Below, piece by piece: positions 55,657 to 62,867 of a stretch of DNA of 64,000 bases. The stretch lies in assembly GCA_963793425.1 (NCBI GenBank), contig CAWCAG010000001.1, positions 160,001 to 224,000 of the forward strand, read 5' to 3'. The position numbers and the translations under genes were made by a program. Source of the DNA: an uncultured cyanobacterium. GTDB lineage: Bacteria > Cyanobacteriota > Cyanobacteriia > Cyanobacteriales > CAWCAG01. The notes beneath the pieces were generated by a model, which had not been told where the DNA came from, ran no database searches, and saw only the letters and a program-made list of their open reading frames with translations. How positions within the stretch are numbered: the stretch's first letter is position 1; every line of letters starts with the position of its first letter.

Positions 55657-58600
55657 ATGAAATTTGCATCTTCCCCCTTCTGGTTAGCTTTAAGCTTAAC
55701 CAGTGCTATCTTCACTTTCCCTACCACGCCCAAATCACCCCTGACAAAACCCTTGGAAGAGAAACTTCTGTTGTTACTCCCCTAAACTCCCAGCTTCAAC
55801 GCCTTGACGGAGGTGCTTTGCGAGGAGTTAATCTCTTTCATAGTTTCTTAGAATTTAACATCAAAGAAGGTCATGGCGCTTATTTTGCTAACCCCGCAGC
55901 AGTAGAGAACATCTTTAGCAGAGTAACAGGAAACAACCCTTCCCATTTATTCGGAACATTAGGAGTATTAGGAGAAGCGAACTTATTCTTCCTCAACCCT
56001 AACGGCATCATCTTTGGTAGCAACGCAACCTTAGACTTGCAGGGTGCTTTTGTCGCTAGTACTGCTGATAGTTTTGTTTTTCCTGGAGGGAATGTATTTA
56101 GTGCCACCAATCCAGAATCTGCCCCTTTATTAACAGTGAGTGCTATTGCTCCTGTTGGTTTACAATTTGAAGGAAGTGGAGGAACAATAATTAACCAAGG
56201 AAACTTAGCAGTTAATGCTGGGGAGGGTTTGAGTTTAGTGGGAGGAACGGTGGTTAACCAAGGAATTTGTTAGCGCCGGGGGGAAACATTAGTGTAGTGG
56301 CAGTGCCAGAAGGGAGGTTAGTTGAATTAGGAAGTCAAGGAGAGGTTGTCGGTTGGCAGGAGTTAACGGCGAGTGTTACAGATGCAGTTGATATTAAATC
56401 GGGAACGGCGGTTATTTCTGGTGAAATTGATGTAGTTAATCAAGAAGGAATTGGGGGAGAGGTTCAAGTATTAGGGGAGATTGTAGAAGTTATTGGGGTA
56501 AAGATTGATGCTTCTGGGGTTGATGGTGGCGGTACTGTATTAATTGGTGGAGATTATCAGGGTAAAGGGGATGTCCCCAATGCTTTGCAGACTTATATTA
56601 GTGAAGATGTCTGTGATTATAGCTGATGGGTTAGGAAATAGTGAAGGTGGTAAAGTAATTGTCTGGGCAGACGAAACCACAAACTTTTATGGCAATGTTT
56701 CTGCCCGTGGTGCAGGTACTGGGGATGGGGGCTTTGTGGAGATATCAGGGAAGGAAACCCTGTTGTTTCGGGGAGAAGTTGATACTAGTTCTGAACTTGG
56801 TAATACTGGGGACTTTACTTCTTGATCCTGATAATATTACCATCGAAAATGGTAATGGTACTGGCGCTCCTCAAACCATCTCAGAAAGACAATTAGAGGC
56901 TCAGGCAAGAAGTAACAATGTTATTGTGCAAGCTAACGATACTATTACTGTCAAAAACCTCTTTGATAACGAATTAGATTTATCCGGGGGTTCAGGAATA
57001 GTAGTTTTTACTGCCGATGCAGATGGTGATGGTGTGGGTGACTTTGTGATGGAAGATACCGCAGATGCAATCCTGGCTGAGGAAAAGGATATAACCATTT
57101 CTGGGGTTAATATAACTACTGGTGAAATCAATACTGATTCCACTTCTTTCTTTTTATTCAGTGCAGGAGATGCAGGAGATATTAAGCTGGAAGCAACAGG
57201 AGATATCTCCACTAGCGATCTTAATGCTCGCTCTGTAGCCAATGGCTTGTTGGGAGATGCTGGATATGGAGGAGAAATTACCCTCAAGGCTGGGGGCGAT
57301 ATTTCTAGTAGTCAGGTTAACTCTGGCTCTGTTTCCCTTCGTGGAAATTCTAAGGATGCAGGAGTAGTTACCCTTGAAGCCGGGGGGAATATTTCAACAA
57401 CTCAAGTGTTTTCAGCCTCTGGCTCTTTCGGAAATGGAAACGTGGGAAGTGGGAACTTGATTACCATGAGGGCTGGAGGAGATATTATTGCCAGTGCTGG
57501 GGTTGCTTCAGGCTCCCTTAGCAGTGGAAATGGAAATGCGGGAGATGGCAGGGCTATCACATTGAAGGCTGGGGGTAATATTTCCACTGCTTATTTCCTT
57601 TCTGCTTCTTTTTCCAATGGAAATGGAAACGTGGGAAATGGAGGGGCGATTGATGTTGAGGCTGGCGGTGATATCTTTGCTAGTGGTGAGGTTAATTCTT
57701 CCTCTTATTCTACTAGAGATGGAAATACTCAACATGGAGGGACAATTGCCCTGAAAGCTGGCAGCCATATTTTCACTGGCATTGTTGACTCCAGATCTAC
57801 TTCTGTTGGAGATGGAGATACTCAATACGGAGGAGACATTTCTCTTAATGCTGGAAGTGATATCTCCACTAGTGGTACTATCACTTCTTCCTCTATTTCT
57901 ACCGGAGATGGGAATACTCAACGTGGGGGAGACATCCGCATTAAAGCTGGCCGTGATATATCCACTGGCACTATCACTGCTTCCTCTATTGCTTTTGGAC
58001 GTGGGGATTCAAGAGATGGAGGAAATGTTAACCTTAAAGCTGGTAGCAATATCTCCTCTGACTTTGCTATCAGTTCTGGTTCTATTGCCTTTGGAGGTGG
58101 AGACTTGGGAGGGGGAGGAGACATTAACATAGAAACTGCTGGAGGAGACATCAAACTTCCAACTAGGATAGGAAATGTCTTATTTCCTGGGATAGGAGAA
58201 GTAAGTAGTGCTGGTAAAACTGGAGGGGACATCAACATTACTAGCTCAGCTACTACTCTAAAATTGGATGACCTTTACATCTTGAGTGGAGGAAGTACAT
58301 CGGCAGGAAGCATTTCCATCACGGCTCCTGCCATGACTCTCAATAACACTCAAATACAGACTGGTCTTATACCAGAGGGAACATTTGGGAAAATTTCAGA
58401 TGGAGTAGTAGGAGATATTTCTCTCAATGCCCAAGAAAATATTACTCTCAATAGAAGTGGCATTACCGCCACCCTAGAACCGAGTACGAGAGGTCAAGTA
58501 GGTAAGATCAGCTTGGTTGCACCAACCCTCAATGTCAACGAATTCTCCCTCATTGAAACCACAACCTTTGGTGAAGGAAATGCTGGTGATGTAGAGATTA

Positions 58601-60567
58601 TGGTAAACAATCTCTTTTTAGATCGTAGCAATATTCAAAGTCTCACGGCTGGGGTAGGGAATGCAGGAAAAGTAAATGTTACTGCTAATCAAGCTGTTCA
58701 ATTAACCAACCAAAGTAATATTGCTACCGTTGCCAACTCTCGCTCTCAAGGGCAAGGAAACAATATTACCATTAACTCTCCCCAACTTTCTTTAACTGGA
58801 GGTTCCCAGTTGCAAGCGTTAACAAAGAGTAAAGGGGATGCAGGTAATGTTTTGCTGAATATCCAAGACAGACTAACCATCTCTGGTGTTAATGCAGAAG
58901 GTTTTCTTAGTGGTGTGTTTACTTCCTCCGGAGATGAACAAAATAGGAATACGGGCAAGGGAGGAGATATCACCATTAACAACTCTGGTACTGTTACCCT
59001 CAGTGACGGAGGAGTCTTAAGCGCCCAAACTTTTAGCAATTCCCCAGGAGGAGACATTAAAGTCAACGCCAACAGACTCAACCTACAAAGTGGAGGACAA
59101 ATTTTAACTAGTACCCTTAGTGGAGGTAAAGCAGGGGAAGTTATTGTCAATGCCAGAGAAAGTCTCAACATCAACGGCAGTGATCCTAACTTTGCTAATC
59201 GTCCTCAACAACCTAAATCTTTAAGACAAGGGGTACAAGCTACTCCTTTCAATCTATCTAAATTAATTACGGAAACAGAACCCAATAATAGTCCAGGAGA
59301 AGCTTTGTTTCTCAGTGATAATCTCTTTTCCGTTGACACTGTTAACAATCCTAACCCCAACGTAGAACTCGCTAACAAGATTCCTTATGTTTCAATCCAG
59401 GATCAAGGGGACAATACTAACACCTCAGACTATTATGCTCTTGAAGTGACAGCAGGAACAAGGGGGATCTTTGATATTGATAATGTCTTAAATGGCCAAG
59501 GTAAACCCATAACAGATAGTTCTAATGTGGAGAGTGTAGAGCTTTTACAAGTTCAAAATGGACAGTTGAAAGTGATATGGGAAAACCCATTTAGCCAAAC
59601 ATCTCTAGGTGCTGGGGGAAGTAACAGTACTTCTGATCCTTATCTCCGCTATACCTTTACTGAAGGTGGAACTATCTACCTCAAAGTTAACAAATCTACT
59701 AACGCTGTTCCCAATCAAAGCAACTATACCCTCAACATCTCTTTAGAAAGTCCCAATGTAACAGGTAGCAGCATTACTACTGGCGGTGCTGCTAGCGGCA
59801 TCTTTGCCCAAACTAATCCCGGTACAACGGGAGACTCCGGTAGTGTTTTTGTCAATACCCCAACCCTGAACATTAGAAATGGGGGACAACTTGCTGTTAA
59901 CTCTCAAGGAGATGGCATCGGAGGCAACGTTAACATCGCCGCAGGTGACATCAACCTGTTTAACCAAGGGACAATCACGGCTGCAACAGCAAGGACTAGT
60001 GGAGGTAACATCAACCTCAATGTTCCCGGTACAATCCTCATGCGAAACAACAGCCTCATTAGCGCGGCAGCAGGGGGTGATGGCAGTGGTGGCAACATCA
60101 CCCTCAATATTGGTTTTATTGTTGCAGTCCCCAATGAAAATAGCGATGTAATTGCCCGTGCTGCCCAAGGCAAAGGTGGTCAAATCATCATTAACGCCAC
60201 TGGGGTTTATGGCTTTGTTGGAGACAGTCGTTTCTTAACTCCCTTTTCTGATTTAAACGCTTCTTCTGATGTTGCGGGTAACGAAGGGACTGTGGAAATC
60301 GATGTAGATTTTGATGTTACTCAAGGGTTGAATAGTTTGCCCGATGATCGGGTGAATACGGAGGTTAATGACAGTTGTGAGGCGATAGAAAAAGATTCAA
60401 CAGTTGCCTTTTTTGATATTGGTAAAGGAGGAACTTTAGCTAACCCAGATGAGCCTTTAGATGCTGATAGTTGGGAATGGATTAGTTTAGAGGAAGAGGA
60501 AGTAGTTGCAGAAGAAGAAAAAGAAATTATTGCTAGAGTAGAGGTTGAAAAGCCGTGTGTATTTTAG
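55657..60567 (+). pseudogene. Filamentous haemagglutinin-like two-partner secretion protein (TpsA) with four frameshifts in its 5' part
   Basis: Signal peptide from ATG 55657, AQITPD.TLG, NLFHSF and NPNGIIFG TPS motifs, beta-helix repeats. Shifts at ~55727, ~56268, ~56610 and ~56808. Confidence 0.88.
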
Positions 60568-60604
60568 GTAATAAGTAATAGGTAATAAGTAATAAGTAAT
60601 AAGT
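60566..60604 (+). repeat. Heptamer array (ARGTAAT)x5
   Basis: AGGTAAT AAGTAAT AGGTAAT AAGTAAT AAGTAAT AAGT, overlapping the tpsA TAG. Confidence 0.95.
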
Positions 60605-60683
60605 TAAGAATGTTCTTTTAATTTTTGGTTTAGGAGTAATTTTGAAGTTATAGCTTGGTGATAGTTGTTTTGTAGTTGAAGAA

Positions 60684-61070
60684 GTGATGATTTTGATTAT
60701 GGGTGTTTCTCATTTAACTATTCAGGAGCGGACTGAAAATTTTGCTGTTCGTGTAATTAAAGCTTATTGTGAACTTAATAGGAGGAATTTTGATGATGCT
60801 GGAAAGATATTGGCGAAGCAGTTTCTTAGGAGTGGTACAAGTATTGGAGCTAATTGTGCAGAGGCAATTTATGCTCAATCTAACAAAGACTTTGTATCTA
60901 AATATTCTATTGCTTTAAAAGAAGCCTCGGAAACCCAGTACTGGATTAAAATCATGATTAAATCTCAACTTCTTCCCAAACAAAAGTTTTCAAATATGCA
61001 ACAAGAAATAATTGAAATAATCAAAATACTAACCACCACTATCAACAAACTGAAATCTAAGCAAGCCTAA
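60684..61070 (+). CDS. Four-helix-bundle protein (23S rRNA IVS protein / Avd-like fold)
   Basis: RTENFAVRVI, KQFLRSGTSIGANCAEA, S.KDFVSK and ALKEASETQYW are hallmark motifs of the TIGR02436-type family. The start may be ATG 60699. Confidence 0.9.
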   Translation: MMILIMGVSHLTIQERTENFAVRVIKAYCELNRRNFDDAGKILAKQFLRSGTSIGANCAEAIYAQSNKDFVSKYSIALKEASETQYWIKIMIKSQLLPKQKFSNMQQEIIEIIKILTTTINKLKSKQA

Positions 61071-61126
61071 AAACCACCAAATACTTACTTGTTAATCCCT
61101 ATTAAAAATATAATGTAAAGTTCAAA

Positions 61127-61165
61127 ACTTATTACTTATTACTTATTACTTATTACTTATTACTT
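61127..61165 (+). repeat. Heptamer array (ATTACTT)x5, inverted relative to 60566-60604
   Basis: ACTT followed by ATTACTT x5, ending 4 nt before the tpsB ATG. Confidence 0.95.
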
Positions 61166-61169
61166 AAAA

Positions 61170-62867
61170 ATGTTCTTAGCTCAAATTCCTCCGCATATTC
61201 CTCCCCAGGATGTTATTCCACCTCTACAACAACCTTCTCCTGTTCCTGAACAACCAGAAACACCCCCTGCACCAGAGGAAGTGCTTCCCGATCCCACTAT
61301 GCCAATTCCTCCAGAAATATTGCTGGATAGCAAGGAAACGATTACGGTTACTGAGTTTGAGTTTGTTGATAATACAATCTTCTCTTCGGAACAGTTAGCT
61401 AAGGAAATCACCGATAAGTATCTCAATCAAACTCTGTCTCTGCAACAACTCCTTAACATTGCTGCTGAAGTTGCCCAGTTTTACGCTGCGGCTGGTTATA
61501 GTACTTCTGGGGCAGTGATTTCTTTACCAGAAGTTACTCGTCAAGAGGGTAAGGGAGTGGTGAGAATTATTGTCATTGAAAGCAAGTTAGAAGCAATTAA
61601 TCTGGTTCCGGTGGGGAAGCAACGCCTTAACCCTAATTACGTGCGATCGCGCCTAGAAGTGGAACCAGGAGACATTCTCAATGTCAGCAAATTACAAGAG
61701 CAACTGCAACTGCTACAACTCAATCCTTTAATTACCAGGGTTGCAGCCCAATTGAGTGAAGGTTCACAACCTGGTTTGAATCAGTTGGAACTTCAGGTGG
61801 TAGAAGCACCTTCTTTTAATTTGCCTTTAAGTATTAATAACGGACGTTCCCCCAGTGTAGGCAGTTTCCAGCGCCAGGTTACGGCGAGGGAAGGAAACTT
61901 ACTGGGGTTGGGAGATGCCCTTAGTGTTGGTTATGGCAATAGCGATGGTAGCAATGTCTGGAGTTTTGGTTATACTCTGCCGGTGAATTCTGGCAACGGT
62001 ACACTGGGCTTTAACTACAGCTACACAACCAGCGATGTAATTGAACCACCTTTTGAAGCGGTTAACATTGAGTCTGAGTCTCAAAACCATGAACTGACAT
62101 TCCGGCAACCTGTGGTGCAAAGCATTCGTCAACAGACCTTTCAGGAATTAGCTTTAGGGGTGACAGCTTCCTGGCGCGATAGTCAAACCTTTTTATTTGG
62201 TTTTCCTTTTCCTCTTTCTCCGGGGGCAGATGACGATGGTAAAACTAATGTTTTTGCTTTGCGGTTGTTCCAGGAGTGGACGCAACAGGATGCCCGTCAA
62301 GTGCTAGCTTTTCGCTCGGAGTTTAGTTTTGGTTTAGATGCTTTTAATTCTACTGTGAACGAGACTCCAGCAGGCTCAGAAGTAGTTCCTGATAGTCGTT
62401 TCTTTTCCTGGCGAGGACAGGGACAGTGGATTAGGTTGTTGGGGGAGGATACTTTGTTTCTGGTACGGGGTAACCTACAAATGGCAAACAAAACTTTACT
62501 CTCCGCAGAAGAGTTTGCTTTAGGGGGTTTTGGTAGTGTGCGGGGTTATCGGCAGAATGTACTTTCTACAGACAACGGCTTTTTTGCCTCTGCTGAACTC
62601 CAGTTACCGATTCTCAAAGTTCCAGAAGAAGGGGTTTTGCAAATTATTCCCTTCTTAGATTATGGCGTAGGCTGGAACAGTTCGGATGTTGCCAACCCAG
62701 ATCCACAAACTTTGATTGGTACTGGTTTGGGTTTACAATGGCAGGATAGAGCCGGGATTTTTAGCGCTCGTTTTGATTGGGGCATTCCTTTAGTTGATGT
62801 GGATAATAGGGAGAGAACGTGGCAGGAGAATGGGCTTTATTTTTCGGTGCAATGGAGGGGTTTTTAA
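61170..62867 (+). CDS. ShlB/FhaC/HecB family two-partner secretion outer-membrane transporter (TpsB)
   Basis: POTRA region, NGRSPSVGS, SVRGYRQ (VRGY motif), RFDWGIPL and a C-terminal F. Confidence 0.93.
   Translation: MFLAQIPPHIPPQDVIPPLQQPSPVPEQPETPPAPEEVLPDPTMPIPPEILLDSKETITVTEFEFVDNTIFSSEQLAKEITDKYLNQTLSLQQLLNIAAEVAQFYAAAGYSTSGAVISLPEVTRQEGKGVVRIIVIESKLEAINLVPVGKQRLNPNYVRSRLEVEPGDILNVSKLQEQLQLLQLNPLITRVAAQLSEGSQPGLNQLELQVVEAPSFNLPLSINNGRSPSVGSFQRQVTAREGNLLGLGDALSVGYGNSDGSNVWSFGYTLPVNSGNGTLGFNYSYTTSDVIEPPFEAVNIESESQNHELTFRQPVVQSIRQQTFQELALGVTASWRDSQTFLFGFPFPLSPGADDDGKTNVFALRLFQEWTQQDARQVLAFRSEFSFGLDAFNSTVNETPAGSEVVPDSRFFSWRGQGQWIRLLGEDTLFLVRGNLQMANKTLLSAEEFALGGFGSVRGYRQNVLSTDNGFFASAELQLPILKVPEEGVLQIIPFLDYGVGWNSSDVANPDPQTLIGTGLGLQWQDRAGIFSARFDWGIPLVDVDNRERTWQENGLYFSVQWRGF

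Follow-up and report, generated by a model that had tools for sequence, protein, structure and literature searches.

The closest known relative of the element described here is the intervening sequence (IVS) in helix 45 of the 23S rRNA of Coxiella burnetii. According to the accessible portion of PMC4990558 (Warrier et al. 2016), this IVS is 428 nt long and carries an open reading frame (ORF) of the S23p type in a loop that is closed by inverted repeats and excised by RNase III; immediately ahead of the ORF stand two or three tandem GACAGAT heptamers, varying in number between strains, the first of which marks the 5' cleavage site. The same portion reports ORF-bearing 23S IVSs from Leptospira, Xanthomonas and Brucella also, with a sporadic distribution resembling horizontal gene transfer and with ORFs in decay; a selfish or mobile nature has been proposed for them. 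The present analysis concerns a cassette of comparable build, found between a tpsA-like gene and tpsB in an uncultured cyanobacterium. The window, i.e., the whole stretch of 64,000 nucleotides that was analysed, corresponds to C1:160001-224000 of a 5.28-Mb genome with 40% G+C (genome code G000).

Few small genes of unknown function are as common as those of the PF05635 and TIGR02436 families, to which the ORF of this cassette belongs. To our knowledge, the 23S rRNA IVS is the only setting in which these families have been studied, and the origin and spread of IVSs are long-standing questions. Were the gene always accompanied by a pair of inverted heptamer arrays, in rRNA and between ordinary genes alike, the IVS would be one habitat of a general element; the recurrence of the arrangement across phyla, as set out below, points to a widespread selfish element related to rRNA intervening sequences. 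On that condition, such cassettes would supply a possibly cleavable RNA stem, a candidate for a protein-binding repeat and natural filled and empty sites, all accessible to tests, as well as a possible source for some cyanobacterial heptamer repeats. There is also a warning for annotation: cassettes lie within operons, where they may alter how neighbouring genes are expressed.

At the focal locus, alignment confirmed the 44-position stem claimed in the initial annotation. Positions 60562-60605 are complementary to 61126-61169 (60562+x opposite 61169-x) over 44 consecutive positions, with 42 Watson-Crick pairs, two G-U pairs (60567:61164 and 60581:61150) and zero other mismatches. The stem is limited by the tpsA stop codon on the left and by the base preceding the tpsB ATG on the right, while a repeat search identified a longer, weaker pairing of 78 nt at 78% complementarity (60562-60639 with 61092-61169). 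When 60550-61190 was folded with RNAfold, as the annotation had proposed, the stem was present in both the minimum free energy (MFE) and centroid structures of the plus strand (-152 kcal/mol, z = -3.58, equalled by 0 of 20 shuffles); it was formed by the minus strand also, with two mismatches (-132.4 kcal/mol, z = -3.08). The loop of 520 nt contains a single convincing gene, as had been claimed: the S23p ORF, which has the same orientation as the genes on either side. A 54-aa antisense ORF in the loop is taken to be spurious.

The link to ORF-bearing IVSs, also drawn in the initial annotation, was upheld by the S23p ORF and by the tandem heptamers of the Coxiella IVS stem, insofar as these are described in the accessible portion of PMC4990558. 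To the same extent, both elements have a sense S23p ORF, a loop closed by inverted repeats and tandem heptamers 5' of the ORF, and sporadic distribution and decaying ORFs are common to both; the Coxiella unit, when rotated to AGATGAC, also conforms to positions A1, T4 and A6 of the consensus derived below. The cassette differs in lying between two protein-coding genes, rather than in an rRNA helix, and in having longer arms, both of which consist purely of arrays; cleavage by RNase III, which the available part of that source gives as shown for the IVS, is a proposal for the cassette. Beyond the heptamers of the Coxiella IVS, no description of a gene-in-hairpin cassette was found in the full-text literature, a search that had most subscription journals outside its scope.

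Recurrence of inverted arms

The cassette is a conserved, cross-phylum package, in which an S23p gene of approximately 120 codons is bracketed by inverted arrays of approximately five heptamers; this is strongly supported by the flanks of homologous genes. An inverted-repeat score was computed between 350-nt flanks, with a threshold of 40 (and also of 30), and the same flanks in direct orientation served as a control. Homologues at E <= 1e-15 occurred in 110 of 301 genomes of the order, representing 65 of 119 genera. Among the 29 best cyanobacterial loci that could be evaluated, 19 scored at least 40, against one in the direct-orientation control. Within twenty 20-kb regions, 11 of 17 S23p ORFs reached this score, compared with 8 of 251 other ORFs, several of which were immediate neighbours of S23p that shared an array with it.

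The pattern extended beyond cyanobacteria. A scan of public genomes, using clade alignment A3 and one genome per species, matched at least 600 stretches, of which 585 were confirmed; the loci analysed were the best 80 of at least 585, comprising 17 cyanobacterial and 63 other loci by their record titles, and 79 were evaluable. A score of at least 40 was obtained for 14 of the 16 cyanobacterial loci and for 44 of the 63 others (58/79 in total), the count among the 63 others rising to 56 at a threshold of 30. The direct-orientation control produced 3/16 and 7/63 respectively. Pseudo-loci with an identical layout, positioned in the flanking DNA, produced 0/143 at a threshold of 30, with a maximum score of 26. 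Thirteen loci were inspected by eye. The notion of a self-contained cassette with enriched inverted arrays, first raised from the focal sequence, was therefore sustained by these three comparisons (19/29; 11/17 versus 8/251; 58/79 versus 0/143). By their titles, the non-cyanobacterial records included Bacteroidales, Prevotella, Flavobacterium, clostridial Firmicutes, Chloroflexi, Acidobacteriota, Verrucomicrobia, Pirellulales, Ignavibacteria, Pelodictyon, Propionigenium, Cloacimonadota and Desulfoarculaceae.

The gene had an array of 18 nt or more on each side in 34 of the 44 cyanobacterial loci and in 45 of the 61 others. The arrays had a median length of 32-35 nt per side and a commonest size of four to five units; the S23p stop codon was often the start of the downstream array. 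The heptamer itself varied by locus, with the complementarity of the two arms retained: there were 54 distinct consensus units among the 79 loci, and in cyanobacteria the arms were composed of TAATAAG, TAATAGG, TAATGGG, TAATTCG, AAGTCAG, AAGTAGA, GTAACGA, GACTTTT and others. A common pattern was nonetheless evident, A-R-K-T-N-A-N (i.e., A1/T4/A6), with an information content of 4.6 bits against 3.49 +/- 0.15 for shuffled units; the focal unit matches it when rotated to AAGTAAT. Arms were also present in the PF05635 subfamilies of loci L078 and L080.

Five PF05635 hits were found in G000 itself. Besides the focal gene, a pseudogene at C5:1885200-1885511 lies between three ATTTATC units and two TGATAAA units, which form inverted arms of a heptamer unlike the focal one. 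A truncated copy has an upstream array only (approximately five GGGAGCA units), and two copies from other PF05635 subfamilies have no arrays.

These counts bear on whether the focal arrangement is a chance juxtaposition, that is, two arrays of short tandemly repeated repetitive (STRR) sequence around an unrelated small gene in an array-rich genome. The accessible part of PMC4692102 describes cyanobacterial heptamer repeats, as well as inverted heptamer repeats that occur in pairs in Xanthomonas. In G000, 840 period-7 arrays reach a length of 21 nt or more; TAATAAG is the commonest class among them (112 arrays), and like-array pairs within 3 kb number 30 inverted and 33 direct across the genome, so that a lone inverted pair by chance is not impossible; the bracketing of some ordinary genes points in the same direction. 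Against this, inverted arms were found at 58/79 homologue loci in several phyla, but at 0/143 pseudo-loci and 8/251 neighbouring ORFs, and both arms are missing from the empty sites described below. Chance is scarcely credible on these figures, and was excluded because inverted arms recur family-wide. The arms are nevertheless like STRRs in being tandem heptamers of the commonest class within an intergenic spacer, and some arrays carry nested small hairpin repeats; the two differ in that STRRs are described as gene-less and have unbiased orientation genome-wide (30:33), while the arrays around S23p are inverted.

A second comparison concerns repetitive extragenic palindromic (REP) sequences and REPINs, in which a single-copy gene, RAYT, is flanked by inverted short repeats that are also dispersed intergenically; RAYT is a Y1 transposase. 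The likeness is that the two arm-bearing copies in G000 are flanked by the commonest (112/840, focal gene) and joint second-commonest (57/840, C5 pseudogene) classes of dispersed heptamer. The S23p protein differs in being a four-helix bundle, rather than a Y1 transposase. The sister species G001 differs also, in having TAATAAG arrays without a match to the focal-clade protein at E <= 1e-15; its only PF05635 hit belongs to an arm-less subfamily. A RAYT-like dependence of the arrays on the gene was therefore rejected, given that G001 retains the arrays.

Organisation of the tpsA-tpsB spacer

The features of the focal locus are as follows.

56659..60567, plus strand: tpsA-like 3' ORF of 1302 aa, from the ORF list; its stop codon TAG (60565-60567) lies within the left arm
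60562..60605, plus strand: left arm of about six heptamers (TAATAAG, two being TAATAGG), the first bases of which are the last two tpsA codons (TTT TAG)
60604..60617, plus strand: TTAAGAATGTTCTT, a copy of a 13/14-nt direct repeat whose partner copy is at 61164-61177
60606..60698, plus strand: leader of 93 nt from the left arm to the S23p start, its initial 34 nt pairing weakly with 61092-61125
60699..61070, plus strand: S23p-type four-helix-bundle gene, 123 aa from ATG 60699 (PF05635, TIGR02436, AlphaFold model)
61071..61125, plus strand: trailer of 55 nt from the S23p stop to the right arm, delimited from the sequence
61126..61169, plus strand: right arm consisting of AAAA, about six CTTATTA heptamers and AAAA; its last base directly precedes the tpsB ATG
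61170..62867, plus strand: tpsB, a ShlB/FhaC-type transporter with POTRA_2 (Pfam ShlB 2e-28, POTRA_2 2.4e-11)

The left arm reads TTTTAGG, followed by TAATAAG or TAATAGG units. The S23p gene has alternative in-frame starts at GTG 60684 and ATG 60687 (the ORF at 60684-61070 encodes 128 aa), and the N-termini of homologues line up with the start at 60699. Leader and trailer were not alignable among cassettes whose genes are 78-82% identical, with a mean column identity of 40-41%. No sigma-70-like site was found on the sense strand of the focal cassette, and 60000-61700 had no Rfam match at E <= 1, either to rRNA or to any other family; the idea of a promoter or a conserved RNA motif within the loop was rejected on these results. 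The two copies of the direct repeat, TTAAGAATGTTCTT at 60604-60617 and TTAAAAATGTTCTT at 61164-61177, lie just inside the boundary of the left arm and outside that of the right arm respectively, the latter across the tpsB ATG; a TTAAGAA(T/C) tail like that of the repeat trails further TAATAAG arrays in the genome (C1:298791, C5:1234165).

The tpsA-like gene is broken into three ORFs in three frames (55818-56273, 56267-56626 and 56659-60567), the first of which, upstream of the 1302-aa ORF, contains the two-partner secretion (TPS) domain. In G001, the orthologue is divided between a 1569-aa ORF and a second, 3' ORF of 205 aa (L178); the window and G001 would thus each have a disrupted copy of the gene, broken at different sites. 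Given the split into three frames, the operon may be decaying.

Gain and loss of the cassette

Arms and gene were shown to be present or absent together at orthologous sites. Three filled and empty pairs were identified: G000 at C5:1885200 (filled) against G001:C3 (empty), G009 against G045, and G191 against G207. In all three, the flanks are collinear at 74-95% identity and the upstream stop codon is in the same place, while the empty genomes, those of sister species (3/3), have an unrelated spacer of 57 to 190 nt from which the arrays are absent. No clean target-site duplication was apparent: the direct repeat of the focal locus lies inside one arm boundary but outside the other, and the three empty sites point to replacement of the whole spacer rather than simple insertion. 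Use of an existing array hairpin as a landing pad, by insertion into its loop, gained no support at the sites that bear on it: all three orthologous empty sites are array-free, despite the occurrence of three empty hairpins in the genome (described at the end). Of two further loci, L049 has flanks that are nowhere adjacent in the other matching genomes of its genus (38 of 39 searched matched), and those of L048 had no match in G191.

The tpsA-tpsB junction itself varies among relatives, as the initial annotation had anticipated. The 3' end of the focal tpsA is 81-82% identical to G001:C3 upstream of the G001 tpsB, and the tpsB DNA is 87% identical to G001:C3:293714-294736. Between the two genes, G001 has XisI (PF08869) and a truncated XisH (PF08814) on the opposite strand (L007 789-1416), and retains one and a half TAATAAG units beyond the tpsA stop. 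With xisI/xisH in G001 and the S23p cassette here, the spacer has taken in a different small cassette in each of two congeneric species. Homology of the tpsB DNA begins at the LAQ codons, which extends the boundary of the cassette into the first codons of tpsB. The N-terminus of TpsB reads MFLAQIPP in the window (61170-61190) and MVLHLLLPTLAQIPP in G001 (L007 1473-1520); the former is very short for a signal peptide.

The position of the arms raises the possibility of a host-adapted regulator of tpsB, in which the stem occludes the tpsB initiation region and couples translation to tpsA or to some signal, the enclosed gene being incidental. The right arm does abut the tpsB ATG, the left arm does start in the tpsA stop, and the stem is stable in both predicted structures. 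Elsewhere, however, the same package lies between unrelated genes (kinase/glmM-like, DUF3780/SNF2, phage-tail-like, patG), the sister species carries a different insert at this junction, and tpsA is in three frames here; we regard such a regulator as very unlikely. Among the neighbours encountered at other loci were a DUF3780 and SNF2/PLD helicase gene pair, with the cassette inside it, and an adjoining patG-type cyanobactin protease/oxidase gene (L064, L067).

Cassettes whose genes are 78-82% identical sit among different neighbours in different families. Homologues were found on 29 plasmid records, but only 2 of 50,697 phage records contained a relative.

Protein family and fold

The focal protein matched PF05635 (E = 9.2e-22; 77.7 bits, cut-off 33.8; residues 11-117 of the 128-aa ORF) and TIGR02436 (94.7 bits, cut-off 24; residues 9-119 of the 123-aa form). 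Its AlphaFold model has four helices, with a pLDDT of 90.9. The closest folds were 2RLD, a protein from Bacteroides thetaiotaomicron (TM-score of the query, TMq, 0.83; 38% identity), which was also matched by phmmer (2rld_A, E = 3.8e-22), and 2GSC (TMq 0.79), followed by 4DWL (TMq 0.71; 17% identity), which is Avd, the accessory protein of a diversity-generating retroelement (DGR) from a Bordetella phage. The fold shared with Avd, another proposal of the initial annotation, was thus recovered behind the two S23 entries, and the DGR ribonucleoprotein entries 8UB7 and 8UBE were also among the fold matches; homology between Avd and PF05635 is stated in the available part of PMC10053308. The S23p structures are much closer in sequence than Avd (2RLD 38% versus 17%), and neither a reverse transcriptase nor template or variable repeats adjoin the S23p gene, as judged from its immediate neighbours tpsA and tpsB.

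Both 2RLD and 2GSC are crystal entries of the S23 family with five chains each, and a Xanthomonas protein of this family is reported to be pentameric, as cited in the accessible portion of PMC4990558. Homologue pairs with estimable dS gave dN/dS of 0.05-0.18; on these values, intact S23p copies encode a working protein, and the coding sequences show purifying selection, though many copies are pseudogenes. Of 30 copies, four had in-frame stops, two more were truncated and one was cut by a contig end.

Mechanism and strand signals

The cassette may be an IVS-type element residing in an operon spacer, the arms of which act through an RNA duplex and RNase III processing, the whole being a selfish unit that moves as a block; we hold this reading with slightly better than even confidence. 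The cassette fills the entire spacer between the tpsA stop codon and the tpsB start codon, and would be the operon-borne counterpart of an ORF-bearing 23S IVS. In a read-through transcript, the arms would form an extended duplex rich in A-U pairs, of 44 bp in this case, which RNase III may cut as it does the IVS stem. Cutting would free the S23p RNA, part the tpsA from the tpsB segment and so avoid polarity within the operon; if left uncut and unmelted, the stem would sequester the 44 nt that immediately precede the tpsB AUG. The cassette would behave as a selfish unit, gained or lost as a block. In the weakest step of the scheme, a pentameric S23p protein probably binds the arrays of about five heptamers. 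On the analysis as a whole, the RNA-processing mechanism is plausible by analogy with the IVS.

The stop codon of the upstream gene lay inside the array, or within 5 nt of it, at 16 of the 21 cyanobacterial loci and at 33 of the 43 others (49/64); this start at the upstream stop, as seen at tpsA, is in favour of a transcript-level role. The upstream neighbour was co-directional in 54 of 60 non-cyanobacterial loci. A role for the upstream arm in providing stops in three frames was rejected: 52 of 79 upstream arms had stops in all frames (22 of 79 downstream), and arrays of shuffled units gave 52.0 +/- 3.5, so that the frequency follows from base composition.

Other observations weigh against the IVS-type reading. 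Sense-strand G-U and A-C arm mismatches numbered 26:26, 24:41 and 6:5 in three counts, and 56 to 72 in total. Without an excess of G-U over A-C, sense RNA is not singled out as the selected form, and the argument of the initial annotation, that the two G-U pairs of the focal stem indicate RNA over DNA structure, was not supported across the family. The upstream neighbour was co-directional in only 29 of 40 cyanobacterial loci; the S23p gene was antisense to both neighbours in 8 of 29 cyanobacterial loci where both were called; and 2 of 17 cassettes in the 20-kb regions were antisense between co-directional genes. One clade has a conserved TAAAAT inside the loop, approximately 30 nt before the ATG and resembling an extended -10 element in some copies, which suggests transcripts of its own that would lack the left arm. 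As for the arrays, ordinary genes are sometimes bracketed too (one was read by eye as psaC), the PF05635 subfamilies of L002, L003, L079 and L081 are arm-less, and cyanobacterial arms share their heptamer class with other arrays nearby; the arms may either adapt to the host's heptamer repertoire or seed it. As for mobility, S23p is the sole ORF of the cassette, which encodes no transposase, recombinase or other mobility enzyme, and tblastn found no near-identical second copy in G000, the next relative having 41% protein identity. There is accordingly no sign of recent movement, and the cassette shows neither the transposase nor the several near-identical copies that mark insertion sequences (IS) and miniature inverted-repeat elements (MITE).

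The conserved block in the loop was seen upstream of the S23p ATG in L026, L029, L032, L033, L034, L037 and L043. It consists of TAAAATTGA, a gap of approximately 10 nt and TCAATTTT(A), reaching to just before the ATG; it is palindrome-like, and the -10-like TAAAAT is preceded by TGN in some copies. The block could be a promoter or operator belonging to the gene.

Many of these points would suit arms that act as DNA, whether as terminal inverted repeats, as iteron-like sites for S23p or as substrates for recombination or single-stranded DNA hairpins; the unit would then be mobile or exchangeable, and the RNA stem a by-product. The arms remain complementary, with Watson-Crick pairs at about 90% or more of positions, and sense-strand wobble pairs are not favoured (56:72), their sequence changes in concert between loci, and the unit is gained and lost block-wise. 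Conserved A1/T4/A6 positions, about five units per arm and the five-chain crystal entries of relatives fit this reading, as do the cassettes antisense to their neighbours and the copies on plasmids. But no transposase or recombinase is encoded and neighbours vary by locus; clean target-site duplications are lacking, empty sites reflect spacer replacement, and there are no recent copies. The IVS, which is the one studied relative, has a stem that is an RNA substrate of RNase III, according to the accessible portion of PMC4990558, and the start of arrays at the upstream stop codon in 49/64 loci is more easily explained for an untranslated RNA stem. Action at the DNA level is thus possible, but on balance we think it unlikely.

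The IVS-type reading may also be extended, more doubtfully still, to a pan-bacterial family of transcript-embedded selfish elements. The pentamer would read the arms with one unit per subunit; arms and protein would spread between spacers and rRNA hairpins by way of RNase III-released RNA or hairpin DNA; and cyanobacterial STRR arrays and array hairpins would partly be progeny of the arms. We consider this combination improbable, though not negligibly so.

Gene-less array pairs

Three hairpins without a gene occur in G000 (C1:298791-298859, C5:1691967-1692040 and C9:22306-22378). Each consists of a TAATAAG or TAATAGG array, a gap of 8-10 nt and an inverted array built of CCTATTA or CTTATTA. 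Such hairpins could be remnants of decayed cassettes, precursors of cassettes or unrelated terminator-like hairpins. On C5 of the same genome, a TTTATCA array (L001 1408-1463) carries a nested hairpin of approximately 27 nt, and is a dispersed repeat that is 87-91% identical to two places in G001 (C2:932586 and C2:491594). Another occurrence concerned L063 (G175:C123:16600-36599), a region that includes a phage-tail or gene transfer agent (GTA)-like gene. Eight sets of array, spacer of approximately 10-120 nt and inverted array were found there within 20 kb; they resemble the cassette in miniature, minus its gene.

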